A DNA stretch of 64,000 bases from positions 25,162 to 89,161 of the IMG/VR virus record IMGVR_UViG_3300042295_000443; one strand, 5' to 3'. The notes under the pieces are model-generated. The model had not been told where the DNA came from. It saw only the letters and a list, made by a program, of their open reading frames with translations, and made no database searches. The DNA comes from a virus. The first letter of the stretch is position 1. The number at the start of each line of letters is the position of its first letter. Both the position numbers and the translations under genes were made by a program. Of this stretch, positions 17,965-32,200 are shown in pieces.

Positions 17965-18076
17965 AATAAATAAGTTTGTCACAAATGTATAAATATTTAT
18001 AATACTATAAAGCATAATATAGTTTACAAAACTATACTATTTTGTAACTTATATGTTACATTATGCATGCATATTC

Positions 18077-18160
18077 TGGAAAAATTCATGCAGGTTATAT
18101 ACTTATAGTGGAAAATTCCCATCACTAAAACGGTTATAATCCTGTTATGGTGGAAAATTC
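18077..18160. repeat. Three TGGAAAA(A)TTC repeats in divergent intergenic region
   Basis: 18077-18087, 18109-18118, 18151-18160; last two preceded by GGTTATA...TTATRG. Confidence 0.6.
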
Positions 18161-18464
18161 TTACACAAAGTTATATGGTTTTTTAGTATGTGAGATGTAG
18201 AGGTTGGGTGCTATGATACAACCCCCCGCCAAATCCTGTGGAGGTGGTACCCCCCACCAACTTGAGGAGTGTGTCATAAATTCTAGGAAATATTTTAGAA
18301 AAAAATCCTGCTGGGAAAGAAACCTAGCTGCTACAACAGGAGAGGAGAGACAAGAGGTGACATGCTATGTCTACTACATGTACTATGCTAGTGATGTGCT
18401 AGCAAGAGGAGGGAGGCAGGGTGCTATATAATAGGGGTGTGTACTATATGTATAATATAGTATA

Positions 18465-18499
18465 GCCTTCGGCAGATTATATAACAGCTTATAACTACT
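18465..18499 (+). promoter_or_regulatory. Early repeat element 1 (candidate virion-RNAP promoter)
   Basis: GCCTTCGGCAG-N8-ACAGCTT-ATA-ACTACT. Confidence 0.7.
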
Positions 18500-18523
18500 A
18501 TGGAACCAACTAAACTTTGTATC

Positions 18524-18592
18524 ATGATTGTATATGCTGTAATAAACGGAGTAGTTACTGTTAAGGAATGGGTGTTAAATCCTAATGCTTAA
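18524..18592 (+). CDS. 22-aa peptide MIVYAVINGVVTVKEWVLNPNA
   Basis: Between repeat 1 and hairpin 18598-18620; AACCAACTAAACT leader like that of ORF 22104. Confidence 0.5.
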   Translation: MIVYAVINGVVTVKEWVLNPNA

Positions 18593-18632
18593 TGTTTGAG
18601 GGAGCTGTAATAGCTCTCTTAACTATGCTTAA

Positions 18633-18667
18633 GCCTTCGGCAGATGGTACTACAGCTTATAACTGCT
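18633..18667 (+). promoter_or_regulatory. Early repeat element 2
   Basis: GCCTTCGGCAG-N8-ACAGCTT-ATA-ACTGCT. Confidence 0.7.
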
Positions 18668-18708
18668 AAGGATATATTATATTTATTAACCATCTAAAAC
18701 TTAAAAAG

Positions 18709-18975
18709 ATGAGCAATGTTAAAGGATTCTTAATCAGTGTAAGTGACACTGTAAAAACAAACACTAATGGAACTGAATTCAGATCTTGCATAGTAGCCAT
18801 TGAGGGTGAAAACTATTTTGCAAAAATCTGGGAGAAATCTGTTTCCAAAGCTGTTGTTGGCAATGAGTACACTGTTGAAATGATTGTTGATGGTGAAAAC
18901 TTATGGTTAACATTGTTAACTGGTGTTACTGCAACTATTGCAACACCTAATATGCTTGCACACCTACTTAAATAA
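18709..18975 (+). CDS. Small beta-rich (OB-fold-like) early protein, paralogue A
   Basis: About 55/88 identical to 19806-20081 by hand alignment. Confidence 0.8.
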   Translation: MSNVKGFLISVSDTVKTNTNGTEFRSCIVAIEGENYFAKIWEKSVSKAVVGNEYTVEMIVDGENLWLTLLTGVTATIATPNMLAHLLK

Positions 18976-18982
18976 TAGGTAG

Positions 18983-19013
18983 AAGATGACACCCTTAATT
19001 GGGTGTTATCTTT
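18983..19013 (+). terminator. Intrinsic terminator
   Basis: AAGATGACACCC/GGGTGTTATCTT stem. Confidence 0.65.
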
Positions 19014-19021
19014 ATAGTTAA

Positions 19022-19056
19022 GCCTTCGGCAGGAAATGCTACAACTTAAAACTACT
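19022..19056 (+). promoter_or_regulatory. Early repeat element 3
   Basis: GCCTTCGGCAG-N8-ACAACTT-AAA-ACTACT. Confidence 0.7.
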
Positions 19057-19089
19057 CATAGTATTAATGTTAAATTTAAACTATATATC

Positions 19090-19293
19090 ATGGACACAAC
19101 AACTGTATTACAAATTATTGCTATGCTTGAAGGTGATGCAAAATCATACATTAAACACCTTGATAATACTAATGACCCTTTTGAAACAGGGTACATTAAA
19201 GGTTATCATGATGCTTTAACAAAGCATGCCCACATGCTGCAAGAGTATATTGAACTGCAAGTAAATTATGCAGAGAATGCATTAGGGGAGTAA
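19090..19293 (+). CDS. 67-aa early protein (start revised from 19036)
   Basis: The track ATG at 19036 lies within repeat 3; ATG 19090 has an A-rich leader. Confidence 0.65.
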   Translation: MDTTTVLQIIAMLEGDAKSYIKHLDNTNDPFETGYIKGYHDALTKHAHMLQEYIELQVNYAENALGE

Positions 19294-19304
19294 TCCCCTT
19301 TTTT
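19284..19304 (+). terminator. Terminator AGGGGA-GTAA-TCCCCT-T
   Basis: Stop codon sits in the loop; same hairpin at 20968-20986. Confidence 0.75.
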
Positions 19305-19330
19305 AAACTGTAATCCCTAAATTAAAATAT

Positions 19331-19435
19331 ATGTTAATAGTTATTGGAAATGTAATGTTTGTTGCTATAATAGTGTTTATTGCCCGTTGTGGCTACAAGC
19401 TAGAAAAGGCTGATGAAGAAAAGGAAAGGGCTTAG
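19331..19435 (+). CDS. 34-aa single-TM peptide
   Basis: MLIVIGNVMFVAIIVFIARCGYKLEKADEEKERA, followed by hairpin and U-tract. Confidence 0.55.
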   Translation: MLIVIGNVMFVAIIVFIARCGYKLEKADEEKERA

Positions 19436-19511
19436 GCTCTTTCTTTTTTTGCTCAATCATTCATTCTTATGGAGTGGCTTGCGCCACACCTTTTATGTCT
19501 TTCTTTCAATG

Positions 19512-19546
19512 GCCTTCGGCAGGAGTCTCTACAGCTTAGGACTTCT
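19512..19546 (+). promoter_or_regulatory. Early repeat element 4
   Basis: GCCTTCGGCAG-N8-ACAGCTT-AGG-ACTTCT. Confidence 0.7.
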
Positions 19547-19650
19547 GTGGAGTGTGCCTTTGCCTATGAGGATAAGATGTTACACACTTATAAAGTTCTC
19601 TCTGAAAAAGAACTTGGACAACTACATAGTAATATGTGGTTGTTTTTTTT
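19547..19650 (+). ncRNA. Candidate ~100-nt small RNA
   Basis: AGTGTG/CACACT and AAGTTCT/AGAACTT stems then terminator 19618-19650; no credible ORF inside. Confidence 0.45.
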
Positions 19651-19716
19651 GGTAGTTCAATGCTTGGCAGCTGCATAGTAAGTACTGTGTAGCAAAACTA
19701 ATTTATTCTAGATTGG

Positions 19717-19751
19717 GCCTCCGGCAGGTGCCTTTACAGCTTTCTACTGCT
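19717..19751 (+). promoter_or_regulatory. Early repeat element 5
   Basis: GCCTCCGGCAG-N8-ACAGCTT-TCT-ACTGCT. Confidence 0.7.
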
Positions 19752-19805
19752 GTGGATATAAGATTGTGAGAAAGCCTCACAACAAAACCAACCCCTATTT
19801 GCAAA

Positions 19806-20081
19806 ATGGAGAAAATGTTAAGAGGTACTCTTATCAGTTTTTCTAATGAGGCAAAAGCCAATGTGAATGGTACTCAGTACCGTTCTTGCATTGTCAATAT
19901 TGGAGGTGAAAATTACTTTGCAAAGCTTTGGGAGAAATCCTTGGCTAAGGCAGTAATTGGAACTGAGTACAATATTGAGGCTGTAGTAGATGGTGATAAC
20001 TTGTGGTTAACGTGCCTTACGGGCGTTAGTGCAACTATTGCTACTCCTGCTACATTCGCTGCTTTGTTAGCAGAATTGTAG
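19806..20081 (+). CDS. Small beta-rich (OB-fold-like) early protein, paralogue B
   Basis: Paralogue of 18709-18975. Confidence 0.8.
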   Translation: MEKMLRGTLISFSNEAKANVNGTQYRSCIVNIGGENYFAKLWEKSLAKAVIGTEYNIEAVVDGDNLWLTCLTGVSATIATPATFAALLAEL

Positions 20082-20145
20082 GAAGTATCCTAGACTGAGT
20101 AAGACTCGGAGTGTACCACTACTTGGCAACAGAAGTGGAAAATAT

Positions 20146-20185
20146 TAATGAACTACATAGAAATATGTGGTTCATTACTTTTTTT
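20146..20185 (+). terminator. Intrinsic terminator
   Basis: TAATGAACTACATA-GAAA-TATGTGGTTCATTA then T7. Confidence 0.8.
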
Positions 20186-20190
20186 AAACA

Positions 20191-20217
20191 GCCTTTGGCA
20201 GAAAGAGTATACAAAAT
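20191..20217 (+). promoter_or_regulatory. Degenerate early repeat element 6
   Basis: GCCTTTGGCAG-N9-ACAAAAT; downstream boxes decayed. Confidence 0.45.
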
Positions 20218-20289
20218 AAAAGATAATATTTGCCTTGGCAAGTACTAATAGGTACTGTGTAGCAAATAGTCTATATATATACTTAACCG

Positions 20290-20325
20290 GCCTCCGGCAG
20301 GTGGGGCGTACAGCTTTCAACTTCT
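20290..20325 (+). promoter_or_regulatory. Early repeat element 7
   Basis: GCCTCCGGCAG-N9-ACAGCTT-TCA-ACTTCT. Confidence 0.7.
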
Positions 20326-20680
20326 TTGAGTGTGGTTAGGCCACGGTCATCTAGACCTACTAACCACCTATGTAACTATTAAAACTAGATTATTATAACA
20401 AAGTCTCCAGCCTGTGCAACAATGTGACTTTGGTACTGATAATCAGGTAGTTATAAAATGAGATATGTGAGAAAAAGAGGAAGAATGAGATTAACTATTA
20501 ACCTATCCAAGAATTTATAGGCAGAAATAGTCAGCAGAAATGGTCTTAAAGCCTAATATTATATAGTATATAGCTAAAACAGACTTAGTATATACATTAA
20601 GAATAGTATTATCTCTTTCTATAGTTAGAGTAACATAATAACTTATTCCGGAATTAAATAAATTTAAAACTATATATACT

Positions 20681-20977
20681 ATGAAAGATTTCATTCACAC
20701 AGGTTGGTGGGGACCTACATTAACTACCACTGAAGATCCTGAATTAAAAGTTATTGAAAGAGATAATGGTCATTCTTGGACTATGAACTTTTATGTTGGT
20801 CATCATTTAATTGATTGCATAAATATGGAATGGTGCCGTGGTACTAAACTAGACAAAGATGTTCTTAGACTTCCTGTGTATAGTGATGAAGGTATCTACT
20901 TAGGTAGTCTTGCTAAAAGATTAGAAGATGCAATTAATGTTATGCATCCAGAACCTATGTTTCATACAGGGGAGTAA
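20681..20977 (+). CDS. Early hypothetical protein
   Basis: 98 aa, A-rich leader, stop inside terminator loop. Confidence 0.7.
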   Translation: MKDFIHTGWWGPTLTTTEDPELKVIERDNGHSWTMNFYVGHHLIDCINMEWCRGTKLDKDVLRLPVYSDEGIYLGSLAKRLEDAINVMHPEPMFHTGE

Positions 20978-20994
20978 TCCCCTTTTATTTAGTA

Positions 20995-21908
20995 TTGTTG
21001 CCTTTTCTTTAACCAGGCAAGTATCCAGTAAGTTGCTGGCGTGGGACTGTCCAGTATAGTTACAAGACAGTAGGGTTTGGTCTATTTCCCTTAAAGACCA
21101 TTAAGTACACAATGTTGTTACCCTCAGAGTTTAGATACTCATGGTGTGTGCGTTAAACCTATTATAACGGTTACTAAAACAACAGGTCAGCTCTCGTGAC
21201 CAAAGGATAAACCAGTAATGGTATAAAGTGATATGTTGGTAACATATTGCGCAGGAGTAATCCTGTCTACAGAAGAGTATTGTAACTACCTACATTTTGG
21301 TGTGCTTGTGGCCTAACGGTTGATGCATAGAGATGTAGACTTTCTAACAGGTAGGAAGTTGAGACAGAAATGTCAATAGAAAGTGCAATAGGTAACAATA
21401 GTACATCTCGCCAAGATGGAAGTTGTTATTAGTGAGATGTTCTTTATGCTACTAGAAATAGTGTGTATTTACATCAAACAGTGAGTAAGCTTGGCCGCTT
21501 AAAGCAATGTGAAGTTATAACTAAGGTACTCAAAAGGTATTATGTTATATAAAGTTGGAACTACTTCACATTATTTCCTGAACCGCATTTAAACTAAAAA
21601 CTTAAAAGCAAAGAATGTTCTAGCACTTATTAGTGAAAATGCTCTTATCCTACTGCAATATGTAGGTACAGAAGACCCGCAAGGTTTATGTAAAGGGACT
21701 GATTAATATCTTAACTAGCAGTAGACATACTGTGTATCCCGTAAGGAAGTTGGTATGAAAGGAAACTTATTGCACTAATATGTAAAAGTATGATGATACT
21801 ATAAATCATTGAGCATGTTGTTTACTTATAGAAATATAAGTGTGTATGAGGAGAAGAAATTTTCCAAAAATAGCAACATGAAAGGTCAATACTCATCCTT
21901 TCAATAGT
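20995..21908 (+). ncRNA. Large structured non-coding RNA region (one or more RNAs)
   Basis: No ORF; many stems, several with GAAA/GTAA/GCAA loops, an AGUA/GAA loop-E hairpin at 21391-21430, possible pseudoknots. Confidence 0.7.
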
Positions 21909-22076
21909 AATGCACCATTTCTACTTCACAAGGGTAGACAGTTGTAATGTATGAACGCAACACTACTAGATTTTATCACTAGAAAGATGTTACATAGGGT
22001 TTTAATTAAAGAAGACTGATAATCTTTTTTATAACCTGCCGGAAACTTACATTATAACTGAGTGCAGAGTGATATT
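21903..22076 (+). ncRNA. Twister ribozyme (variant, long P5 insertion), copy 1
   Basis: P1 AATA/TATT, G-T^AA, P2 TGCA/TGCA, P4 TCTAC/GTAGA, loop TTCACAAGG, pseudoknots TCAC/GTGA and CC/GG, conserved GA; predicted cut 21908/21909. Confidence 0.75.
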
Positions 22077-22103
22077 AAATAGTAACCAACTAAACTATAA
22101 TAT

Positions 22104-22256
22104 ATGATTTTTCAATTGATTGCTCAAATTATTAAAGATGCTGATAAAGTATCAAACAAGAAATTAGATAAAGCTGCTTATGCAGATTATCTCAATACTC
22201 TTTCTCTAGATGATCTACTATTCCTTAAGGATAGTTATAGTTCAGAGTTAGTATAG
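22104..22256 (+). CDS. 50-aa ORF between the two ribozymes (not in track)
   Basis: MIFQLIAQIIKDADKVSNKKLDKAAYADYLNTLSLDDLLFLKDSYSSELV, A-rich leader. Confidence 0.65.
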   Translation: MIFQLIAQIIKDADKVSNKKLDKAAYADYLNTLSLDDLLFLKDSYSSELV

Positions 22257-22289
22257 TACTTATTCCTGCAAGATTAATTTCTTGTGGGA

Positions 22290-22415
22290 TTAGTAATACA
22301 CCACTTCTCATTCCCAAGGTGAGACAGTTGTAATAGTAAGAGAGCAGGTTGCTTAGTCACACCTGCGGTAAATAATACTAAATCTTACACATTACAACTG
22401 AGTACAGAGGGATAA
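22290..22415 (+). ncRNA. Twister ribozyme (variant), copy 2
   Basis: P4 TCTCA/TGAGA, loop TTCCCAAGG, pseudoknot TCCC/GGGA covarying with copy 1; P2 TACA/TACA has two A.C mismatches; predicted cut 22294/22295. Confidence 0.65.
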
Positions 22416-22532
22416 CAAGGGTCATAACCTTGGGGCATAACTAAGAGCTAGTAAGAAGACATAGAGTTCATTTTATTATGAAAGATACAACTCTTATTAG
22501 AACAACTCTTAGTTAATGCTTTATAAATATGT

Positions 22533-29235: not shown

Positions 29236-32200
29236 TAGTTCAGATAAACCTTCTAAAATCCCTCAAAATGAGTGGATTACAGAAGGAGAAACATATACCA
29301 TTACTAGAATAGTTAGAATGGGTCTTGAAAAAAATAAATATGGAGTTCTTCTTAAAGAAGTACAACTCTCATCCCAATCCTTTCCTTATGAATTATATGA
29401 TGCTGCAAGATTTTTACCTTTAGATCTTTTAGCTAATATGAAAGAAGAAGAAGAAGTCACAGTTAGAGAAGCTGACTTAGAATTAATTTAAAAATTACTT
29501 CTTTTTATCATTTATTTAAAAATATACAATGTATACATCAAAAGATATTGAGGATGAATTAGTAAGTATATTACAACCTCACAGAAAAAGAAATTATTTA
29601 GATAAAAGAAATTATCTAATTGGTATATTATCACATAAGTATAACATGACCGAAGACCATATTGCATCTATTACTAATATAGATAGATGTACAGTACATG
29701 CTGCTAAAGATCAAGCATTACATTTAATTAAAATAAATAATGAAGGCTTTATAAGTGCAGCAGCAGATTATATAGAAAAGTTTCCATATACATTTACTGA
29801 GAAAACTAAAAGTGATAGACACAAAAGACTACATACAGTTGTAGTAACTTTAAGTGATCAGACATATAAAAAGCTCAGAAAATATACAACTGTAAAAGAA
29901 ATAGGTACTATTAATGTAGCTGGGAGAAATGTAATTGAAAAATATTTAAAGTTATGGGAAGAATGAAAGAGTTATATATAGAAATGTTGGAAAAAGATTT
30001 AGAAAATTTAAACCTTTCCCAATATATACAACTTAAAGAGTTAGAAAAACAATATGCAGAAGAACAGTTCTTAAAAGAACTAAAAGAAAAAGGTGATTCA
30101 GAAGAATAGGCCTAAGTATAAACCAAATAAAAATTAAAAATTATGAAAACTTTATTAATGACAATAGGATTAGCACTAAGCTATACAGCAAGTGCACAAT
30201 GGGTAAGCAAAACAATTAATAATGGCTTTGATGCTCCATATAAGATTGCATATACTGATGTTGCTAAAAATCAATGGTTAAAGCTTGAGAATTATAATAA
30301 TGAAATATCTTTCTATATTGGTGGTGTGTATATATGTGATGATAATGTTAGTGTAGATATGTCTTTTTTAATTAACGGGACTTATGAAAAATACAATCTA
30401 TTAGATTGCTATACTTCTGAAGATAATACAACAGTATTTTTTATAGATAACTTAGCAGCACATGAAATACTAACTAGCTTTAAAAGTGCTTCATCAATAA
30501 AAATAAGAATCAATGATACTACATGTGATTCAGAAATATATGAATTTAAAATGTCTGGAAGTACAGCTGCATATAATTATGTAGTTGCTCCTTGAAACAC
30601 TTTGTAAAATATCTATTGGTATGGGTAAGCCAAAACTTATCCATACCTTTTTGGATGGTTGGTCATATACATTTATCAATGAATGTATATGCTGATATCC
30701 ATGAGATATTAATGTCCTTTGGTATGAACATCATTGTAGCAATAGGATTTATTATAGATTATAAAGAACAAAGAAAAAATAAAATGTGACTAATATATTA
30801 GCTATTTATACCTTTTTGTCACAATTCTAGCTAATATATGTGACATTTTGATAAAGGATAAGTGGTAAAAGTTACCACATTAATTAAATAGAAATGATAT
30901 GAAAATAATAACTAAATCAGTAATTAAACTGTCTGATATTCCAGAGCATTTACAACAAAATGAAGTTCTACAAGGACACAAGGAGCATACATATGCAGAA
31001 TTTCATATTGATGGCTCAGAACAAGATGATTTAACCTTATGGCTATTGAGTAAGTACCCTACTTTAAAAAGGAAGATAAGTTTTTTAATTCATATTACTT
31101 AAATAAAAATGATAAAATTGAGTGCAAATTAAGTAAAATGAGCGCAAAGTATGGAAATTAAGTATTAATCACCACAATTAACTAAAAATAACATGAGTAT
31201 AATAGGAAGTAGTTGGAAAGAAGAATATCCATCAGATGATGAGATAATAAAATACAATGAAATTACAGGAGAAAATTTTTATGGCTCTAAAGATGAACTA
31301 CAAAAAAGAATAGAAAAAATAAGTGATTCTAATTTTACTTCACAAAAAGAGCGTAAAGACTTATTTAAGTTAAGTGAAGACTTAAATCAAAACAAAAATG
31401 AAAAATAATTAAATCAGAATAACATGAAAGAAACAGCAGTAGAATGGCTTGAAAAAATACGTCAAGGTCAGAAAGGACAACCATTTGATGATTATGAGTG
31501 GGAAATAGCATTTAATCATGCCAAAGAAATGGAGAAAGAGCAAATGGAAGAAATTAGAGAAATGCTTGTACAAGGTGCGTTAACTAATATGAGTTGTGCT
31601 TCTGCTGTTGTGGAATTTGATAGATTAACTAAACAACAAGAACAATGAGACAGATAGTATACAACTCAGTAAAATGCCTTGAGTGTAATAAGGTATTAGT
31701 AAGTAGACATAGGCATGACTATGTAACATGTGGTTGCCCAAATAATGCTATGGCAGATGGTGGTAATGAGTATGAAAGGTATGGTGCAGTAGATATGGAT
31801 AAGATTGAAACTTACTATGTATATGCAGATGATGACTATGAGTTAGTCCGGAAATATGCAGTAAGAGGAGGTAGAGGTAAAGGTGGAAGAGATCCATTAA
31901 CATGGATACCTATAGCTGATATGGATGATGACTACCTACTAGCAGTACTTGACTATGGTGGTGCAGATTGGCACCTTGACATTATTAGAAAAGAAATTAA
32001 ATATAGACAAGATGGGAAAAATAATACTGGAGTTTAACTCTGAAGAAGAAGGTAATGATGCTAGAATAGCATTAGATGGATACAAATGGAAACTAGCTAT
32101 GTGGGATCTTGACCAAAAGTTAAGGAGTGTTGCAAAGTATGGTGTTATTGATAATAAAGAAGCTACACCTGAAGAAAGTGAAATGGCTGATAAGGTTCGG

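Follow-up and report, generated by a model that had tools for sequence, protein, structure and literature searches.

Probable twister-type ribozymes at module borders of a lake phage RNA island, one of them adjoining a GOLLD-like RNA

INTRODUCTION

Twister ribozymes are defined by the stems P1, P2, and P4, with P0, P3, and P5 being optional, and by two pseudoknots, T1 joining loop L4 with L1 and T2 joining L4 with a GC dinucleotide of L2; they cleave directly 5' of P2 at a U-A site, in which the A is highly conserved and the U is usual, and also have a conserved catalytic G (PMC5408937, PMC6154101). This guanine, which is G45 in Osa-1-4 and G48 in env22, acts as the general base and is followed by an A, 3' of P2. 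Here, we describe two copies of a twister-type element in a 64-kb stretch of viral DNA (in the following, the window), which is part of an 89-kb phage contig of IMG/VR (IMGVR_UViG_3300042295_000443). Both copies probably belong to an uncatalogued, phage-borne twister-type subclass of type P1 (termini in P1) with no P3 and a constant P5, and such ribozymes would most likely split a long transcript into individual RNAs.

Among annotated twisters, P3 is present in 78% and P5 in 1% (PMC6154101), and P1 is not needed for activity in vitro (PMC5408937). A mutational scan of Osa-1-4 identified G13, G30, A46, and G48 as intolerant positions; pseudoknot pairs could be replaced by other Watson-Crick pairs, single helix mismatches were often tolerated at the 2-h end point, and the A40C exchange cut the activity to 0.09, for which the authors blame the loss of T2 (PMC5113685). 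The roles of twisters in bacteria and phages are still largely speculative (PMC5408937, PMC6765202).

The RNA preceding the first copy resembles GOLLD (RF02032; Weinberg et al. 2009), a large phage-encoded RNA that was described near tRNA islands and for which cryo-electron microscopy shows a 14-mer cage (PMC12286853).

RESULTS AND DISCUSSION

Two twister-type copies in the window

A covariance model made from a 60-sequence alignment of relatives (A2) finds only two copies in the 64 kb (E of about 1e-20), with the next match scoring 13.5 bits. The copies and the accessory domains inserted in their P5 stems are located as follows.

21903..22076, + strand: copy 1, candidate ribozyme of twister type with an intact core (family covariance model, 83 bits)
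22289..22416, + strand: copy 2, candidate ribozyme of twister type (family covariance model, 86.3 bits)
21949..22050, + strand: accessory domain inserted in P5 of copy 1, conserved and about 100 nt long (identity to relatives)
22335..22390, + strand: accessory domain inserted in P5 of copy 2, also conserved but different from that of copy 1 (identity to relatives)

A preliminary description of this DNA had placed two copies here, with a U^AA at 21908/9 and at 22294/5, and both direct reading and alignment agree with it base for base. The predicted cut of copy 1 is U21908^A21909, with P2 being formed by 21911-21915 and 22062-22066 and P4 by 21920-21924 and 21934-21938, which enclose L4 (21925-21933, UUCACAAGG). 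The P5 stem pairs 21939-21948 with 22051-22060, and G22067-A22068 is followed by GUG at 22069-22071; a weak P1 is possible between 21903-21906 and 22073-22076. For copy 2, the cut is predicted at U22294^A22295, P2 pairs 22297-22301 with 22402-22406, P4 pairs 22306-22310 with 22320-22324 around L4 (22311-22319, UUCCCAAGG), P5 pairs 22325-22334 with 22391-22400, and G22407-A22408 precedes GGG at 22409-22411.

The aligned copies have their 5' and 3' halves in common, whereas the P5 interiors are unrelated. P4 reads TCTAC/GTAGA in copy 1 and TCTCA/TGAGA in copy 2, and the L4-L1 pseudoknot is CAC/GUG, the rarer form, in copy 1 and CCC/GGG in copy 2; these differences had been claimed to be compensatory, which holds for both copies. 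The traits singled out as unusual for a twister, namely the 9-nt L4, the CC/GG contact, and the long, unrelated P5 inserts, are likewise all present. The insert of copy 1 is 92% identical to inserts in L038 and L123 and 87% identical to those in L061 and L062 (related contigs carry numbers with the prefix L), each lying inside a ribozyme of the same family. For the insert of copy 2, the identity is 100% in L065, over 55 nt, and 91% in L013, and the P5 region of this copy has a minimum free energy (MFE) of -23.8 kcal/mol with a z score of -4.1.

Covariation across the family

Relatives were gathered with a degenerate pattern of the 5' half over the IMG/VR viral contigs, and the counts are lower bounds. 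The core pattern matches at least 119 viral contigs with at least 120 complete instances, at least 107 of them being unique, and all complete matches carry a fitting 3' half. The pattern demanded TAAT, ACC, and CAAGG, and invariance at these positions is therefore partly imposed.

The family folds into the proposed structure, with 92% of the cells being paired in the 60 sequences of A2, a value reached by none of 500 shuffles, and with slid controls giving 28-57%. P4 covaries at all five pairs (99.3% of the cells paired in A2), the base of P5 covaries as well, and P2 alternates between UGCAC/GUGCA (73 sequences) and UGUAC/GUACA (29 sequences), which are C-G to U-A changes. The fifth P2 pair is C-G in 119 cases and U-A in 5, so that the nucleotide equivalent to Osa-1-4 G13 changes together with the one equivalent to A40. 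For the L4-L1 pseudoknot, the unique members listed show CCC/GGG 103 times, CAC/GUG with its C-G to A-U change 4 times, and no mixed combination, and the corresponding helix (helix 5) is 97.5% paired in A2.

The covariance model furthermore finds divergent copies in the fetched loci with more compensatory changes, such as a P2 of UGUGU/ACACA in L077 and of UGCAU/AUGCA in L012, L017, L044, and L115. The pseudoknot of L012 is UCC/GGA, in which the next pair has changed to U-A. The G.U pairs are present solely in the + strand reading, and the structure is therefore one of RNA made in the gene direction.

The invariant positions comprise the A immediately downstream of the cleavage site, the G-A after the 3' strand of P2 (A2 columns 184-185), the AA of L4, and a C-G pair that corresponds to C14-G30. 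The U-A-A is found in 60 of 60 aligned members and in both window copies (the TAAT being required by the pattern), and L4 reads UUC(C/A)CAAGG, with 9 nt. These invariant positions correspond to the catalytic or essential twister positions described previously (PMC5408937, PMC5113685). The family, its fold, the synteny with GOLLD, and the coding status of ORF50 are thus results of the analysis, whereas self-cleavage and the cleavage sites are inferred.

The family includes deviating members. In L013:1984-2165 (- strand) and L067:9485-9596 (- strand), the 5' strand, P4, L4, and P5 are kept, while the 3' half is perfectly complementary to UAAUGCACC; L031 and L035 have variants of this type as well, placed immediately behind a normal ribozyme. 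These variants are derivatives without activity or else a sister motif that uses the L4 hairpin otherwise. Decayed copies are found at L084:5983-6107 (- strand), L095:6014-6160 (- strand), L029:8438-8576 (+ strand), and L048:1555-1676 (+ strand); all four keep P5 and the 3' half, two being without the L4 loop and two without the 5' strand of the cleavage site. The window itself has a lone hairpin at 29836-29892 with the conserved sequence of the P5 base (CAGUUGUA...UACAACUG) and without a ribozyme core, which stands in a region that looks protein coding.

The P5 inserts interchange between ribozyme cores. A flank comparison of the ribozyme with its neighbours gave 55 pairs linked only upstream, 48 linked only downstream, and 20 linked on both sides, and a general tie to the upstream over the downstream neighbour was rejected, the 55 and 48 pairs showing no preference. 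The even linkage and the exchange of P5 inserts fit a boundary element in a mosaic region.

Comparison with known twisters

The order of elements in the phage family is U^A-A, P2, a CC in L2, P4 with its L4 (CCC-AA-GG), P5, the 3' strand of P2, G-A, and GGG. Twisters of type P1 (RF03160, RF02684) share the order of U^A, P2, a short L2, and P4 with a CCC-AA-G loop, as well as the pseudoknot of L4 with a strand 3' of P2, after an invariant G-A, and two long-range contacts are possible in both. The P5 of the phage family, between P4 and the 3' strand of P2, occupies the position of the optional twister P5. The element order is like that of twister, and we therefore call the family twister-type, a claim of the preliminary description that is upheld by the covariation over more than 100 relatives.

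The family differs from the known twisters in several respects. Its P2 has five covarying pairs instead of four, its L4 has 9 nt instead of 8, and its L2 has the dinucleotide CC, with GG as the putative partner, where known twisters conserve GC. It always has P5, with a conserved stem base and interchangeable inserts of 20-250 nt, and never P3.

A GOLLD-like RNA adjoining copy 1

The region directly 5' of copy 1 contains a large RNA.

21105..21908, + strand: GOLLD-like large RNA (Rfam RF02032 and nhmmer; the 5' limit is approximate)

The RF02032 model, which represents the conserved 3' domain of GOLLD, aligns to 21507-21899 over its full length (model positions 1-416 of 416) with 88 bits and an E value of 3.7e-23; the gathering score of 150 is not reached, and we treat the RNA as a divergent GOLLD relative. 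Like GOLLD, it is large, phage-encoded, abundant in metatranscriptome contigs, and free of open reading frames (ORFs), with no ORF of 40 or more amino acids being found on the + strand between 21059 and 22104. GOLLD has been described near tRNA islands, whereas the 64-kb window has no tRNA genes; in related contigs, single tRNA genes do lie at a distance of 1-2 kb or more. A second difference is that the 3' end of the window RNA adjoins a ribozyme, which is unmentioned in the GOLLD literature searched. The literature searched gave no link between GOLLD and a self-cleaving ribozyme and no twisters in crAss-like phages.

The conserved 3' domain of the GOLLD-like RNA stops 9 nt before the predicted cut of copy 1, and U21908, carrying a 2',3'-cyclic phosphate, is predicted to be its 3' end. 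An RNA of the same kind, of about 900 nt, ends at a family ribozyme in L038, L045, L061, L062, and L070 (nhmmer), and the GOLLD-like RNA is also followed by the ribozyme in L065, L123, and L125, giving eight other contigs in total. The earlier suggestion that copy 1 defines the 3' boundary of a large upstream RNA is supported by this shared junction. The genes after the GOLLD-like RNA and the ribozyme differ between contigs, and the ribozyme therefore travels with GOLLD in this lineage. In L038, L065, L123, and L125, a further ribozyme lies 5' of the GOLLD-like RNA, which the window does not have. At L124:10861-10937, a GOLLD-like 3' end leads into a T-rich stretch and then a gene leader without any ribozyme, which shows that not every GOLLD 3' end has one.

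Contigs from the metatranscriptome runs X19-X21, representing at least two studies, span 21123/21170 to 21845/21889 at a depth of 142-318, and a close relative of the GOLLD-like RNA is therefore abundant in lake RNA. These contigs stop at 21845, 21847, and 21889, beside polymorphic positions, and do not map the 3' end. The stretch 21909-22294 has a depth of at most 4 where the GOLLD part has 142-318, low cover in contigs being no evidence. Run X19 also has a 156-nt contig at depth 82 over 22336-22485, which covers the 3' part of the copy-2 P5 and the next 70 nt with nine differences.

ORF50, the conserved hairpin, and the state of copy 2

The 386-nt piece between the two predicted cuts (21909-22294) includes a small ORF, with both sets of coordinates being as given in the preliminary description. 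Beyond copy 1, it consists of a leader, this gene, and a hairpin.

22077..22103, + strand: leader of ORF50 (UAGUAACCAACUAAACU...), with the same leader being found after the L070 ribozyme, before an unrelated gene
22104..22256, + strand: ORF50, a real small protein gene (L004 homologue)
22264..22289, + strand: conserved 10-bp hairpin between the stop codon of ORF50 and copy 2 (MFE of -17.8 kcal/mol, z score of -4.6)

The L004 homologue of ORF50 has an amino acid identity of 71%, the homology begins at the ATG, and the codons of the two genes show 12 synonymous differences and 14 non-synonymous ones, most of which are conservative. The PHROG search of ORF50 matched no family.

The region 22257-22294 is identical in L004 at 36 of 38 positions and is thus better kept than ORF50 itself. 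The hairpin at 22264-22289 is likely to protect the 3' end of the upstream cleavage product or to act as a P0-like element. It had been suggested that a hairpin at 22257-22295 competes with copy 2. The hairpin exists, but its core (22264-22289) is without overlap with the ribozyme, and only the outer pairs 22257-22260/22292-22295 would hide the cleavage site of copy 2. Since just these four weak pairs touch the site, the hairpin competes with the ribozyme weakly at most.

Copy 2 had also been described as mismatched in P2, and two central mismatches are indeed present, A22298.C22405 and C22299.A22404, together with a rare C22304 in the junction. Among the 128 family members listed, copy 2 alone has two mismatches in P2; P2 is intact in its orthologue in L004 and in the L065 ribozyme, whose P5 insert is identical to that of copy 2. 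Copy 2 is thus probably weakened, slow, or inactive in this phage, and we call it weakened rather than dead because single helix mismatches were often tolerated in Osa-1-4 (PMC5113685).

Pistol and Hatchet in related loci

Related phages carry two other classes of self-cleaving ribozymes within the same RNA islands, Pistol and Hatchet, which are known from phage-associated regions (Weinberg et al. 2015; PMC4604425). Their folds and cleavage sites are unrelated to those of the window family, and neither was found in the window. Hatchet is found at L009:6387-6553 (+ strand), with 79 bits against a cut-off of 51 (RF02678), and Pistol is found at L070:1434-1498 (+ strand), with 42.1 bits against a cut-off of 34.5 (RF02679). 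The order in L070 is a GOLLD-like RNA, a twister-type element, a leader like that of the window, a 78-amino-acid ORF, and Pistol right after the stop codon. This Pistol begins 387 nt past the cleavage site of the first ribozyme, and the cut of copy 2 in the window lies 386 nt past that of copy 1. The presence of a proven ribozyme of another class at the spot equivalent to copy 2 argues that cutting is what this position requires.

Other relatives show different layouts, for which two further features of the window are relevant.

20968..20993, + strand: hairpin resembling a terminator, with a T run, located where ORF 20681-20977 stops
20985..21100, + strand: module A, conserved and non-coding, directly 5' of the GOLLD-like RNA (nhmmer)

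In L004, the unit of ORF50, hairpin, and ribozyme comes directly after a stretch homologous to window 20184-20666, and there is no upstream ribozyme. Compared with L004, a block of about 1.4 kb is inserted in the window; it is composed of ORF 20681-20977, the terminator-like hairpin, module A, the GOLLD-like RNA, and ribozyme 1. L061 and L045 have GOLLD and the ribozyme, followed by an unrelated first gene and no second ribozyme. The module A matches in L009, L095, L117, L055, and L087 stop at a ribozyme of the window's family (nhmmer), module A thus leading directly into the ribozyme in these five contigs and into the GOLLD-like RNA in the window.

Alternative explanations

Several observations weigh against a catalytic twister-type family. 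The Rfam twister models RF03160, RF02684, and RF03154 give no match in the window at the gathering score, and the twister-P1, twister-P5, and other ribozyme models give none at E<=10 on a 1.3-kb excerpt or on an 84-nt family member, so that the Infernal check proposed with the preliminary description yields no hit; twister-family-specific Rfam searches gave no candidates either. P1, which is phylogenetically conserved in known twisters, is without support: sought in several registers, the best flank helix averages 3.54 bp against 3.31 bp for shuffled partners, and a fixed P1 register is 56% paired in A2. The second pseudoknot (CC/GG) shows zero variation in the data set, with both strands being fixed by the pattern, and the divergent covariance model matches also keep ACC and CAAGG. 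As C17 covaries with G179, only C18-G34, the equivalent of C14-G30, can be assumed of T2; the extra P2 pair takes the nucleotide expected in the outer T2 pair, which is analogous to the harmful A40C of Osa-1-4 (PMC5113685). The variants of the L013/L067 type have neither the G-A nor the T1 strand and would not be catalytic. Finally, the RNA data are assembled contigs, from which RNA ends cannot be placed.

Much of this would suit a conserved, folded, non-catalytic module that merely resembles twister, such as a protein- or RNA-docking element or a boundary element for stability. The missing Rfam match, the harmful type of pair within the 5-bp P2, the unsupported P1, and the variants that keep P4, L4, and P5 fit such a module, as does the P5 base, whose sequence is conserved more than pairing alone needs. 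We nevertheless regard it as unlikely, since all twister positions called catalytic or intolerant in the literature are present, invariant, and in the right order, the pseudoknot covaries, and a genuine Pistol stands at the equivalent position in L070, with Hatchet in the same kind of island in L009. A role of the core mainly as DNA, in which 40-50 nt of near-identical boundary sequence promote recombination and module shuffling and the RNA fold is secondary, could draw on the nearly equal ties of the ribozyme to either neighbour, the P5 inserts swapped between cores, and the GOLLD-ribozyme cassette inserted in the window relative to L004. However, a DNA-level role alone would not keep compensatory changes, strand-specific G.U pairs, and a covarying pseudoknot; it would therefore be just an added effect, and as the main function we consider it very improbable.

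The preliminary description saw in the pair a device that excises a circularisable RNA, in which the two ribozymes free the 386-nt piece 21909-22294 and a host ligase of the RtcB type closes it to a circular ORF50 message. Twister cleavage yields a 5'-OH and a 2',3'-cyclic phosphate, the ends used by RtcB, and two co-oriented ribozymes do flank a real small gene, as the family ribozyme and Pistol do in L070. In engineered designs of the 'Tornado' type, an RNA is flanked by twisters that leave a 5'-OH and a 2',3'-cyclic phosphate, the 5' ribozyme being permuted and a stem joining the ends. The window shares with these designs that two twister-type copies flank an RNA, but its copies are both of type P1, nothing holds the two ends close to each other, and related contigs do not keep the arrangement. 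Since the predicted cut lies at the 5' end of each ribozyme, the freed RNA would carry all of ribozyme 1 at its 5' end, with no helix joining the ends. The bracket is missing from L004, where ORF50, hairpin, and ribozyme occur without an upstream ribozyme, and L061 and L045 lack a second ribozyme after the first gene; the damaged P2 of copy 2 also counts against a circle. No RNA contig joins 22294 to 21909, a missing junction in contigs being no evidence. The device is unsupported, and the chance that it exists appears very slight; if true, it would be a natural circular translatable RNA from a bacteriophage, with the Pistol-bounded gene of L070 as a second example. The layout of L004 and the inserted block rather indicate that the bracket is a chance meeting of two units each ending in a ribozyme, and the two copies look like independent modules side by side, not a matched pair.

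Proposed processing

For the twister-type reading, which we prefer, the following course is proposed. One long rightward RNA would probably contain module A, the GOLLD-like RNA, ribozyme 1, ORF50, the hairpin, ribozyme 2, and the downstream genes. Ribozyme 1 would cut itself at U21908/A21909, so that the GOLLD-like RNA would end at a defined position and carry a 2',3'-cyclic phosphate there, and the ORF50 message would then begin with a 5'-OH and with the folded ribozyme as a cap-like structure at its 5' end. Cleavage by ribozyme 2 at U22294/A22295 would let the ORF50 message end in the stable hairpin. Effects of these cuts on RNA stability would be expected, and each ribozyme would mark the border between independently shuffled modules.

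Gene setting and distribution

The window encodes a portal protein, a large terminase, a DNA polymerase, a helicase, and two ORFs of about 2,000 amino acids. Both ribozyme copies sit at the switch from leftward structural genes to rightward genes, and the sign of the GC skew flips near 18 kb of the window. Three terminator-like sites were found against 0.6 expected, and the hairpin at 20968..20993 may end the upstream transcription unit. The region 18200-20680 has few ORFs and a G+C content of 0.35-0.36, compared to about 0.28 elsewhere, and parts of it are kept as DNA in L065, L004, L054, L033, L006, and L117, so it may hold more non-coding RNA modules; an Rfam E-value scan that included it (18000-21550) returned nothing useful. 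The blastn search of 20900-22500 against a phage GenBank collection gave no match.

DNA of the window is present in many lake-water metagenomes. A cellular genome collection of 596 Gb gave 40 matches to the pattern, about the number expected by chance for 17 fixed bases, of which the covariance model recognizes 6 as real. These are on contigs of metagenome-assembled genomes (MAGs) from freshwater Chitinophagaceae, Sediminibacterium, and Bacteroidia and on small unassigned contigs, with the MAG contigs L130, L131, and L156 (Chitinophagaceae, Sediminibacterium, and Bacteroidia) carrying true family members. The MAG members are a hint of Bacteroidota hosts, of prophages, or of mis-binned phage contigs.

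Implications

The elements described here would represent a twister-type subclass located at the module borders of lake-phage RNA islands and, in the case of copy 1, at the exact tail of a GOLLD relative. The family points to gaps in the Rfam twister models, namely a P2 of 5 bp, a changed contact between L2 and L4, and a P5 at which interchangeable domains dock. Copy 2 and its intact relatives in L004 and L065 offer natural test cases. The suggested roles are the making of 3' ends of large structured RNAs and the parting of these RNAs from the messages that follow. The predicted cut site would thereby give the natural 3' end of the GOLLD relative, which matters for structural work on the GOLLD cage (PMC12286853).

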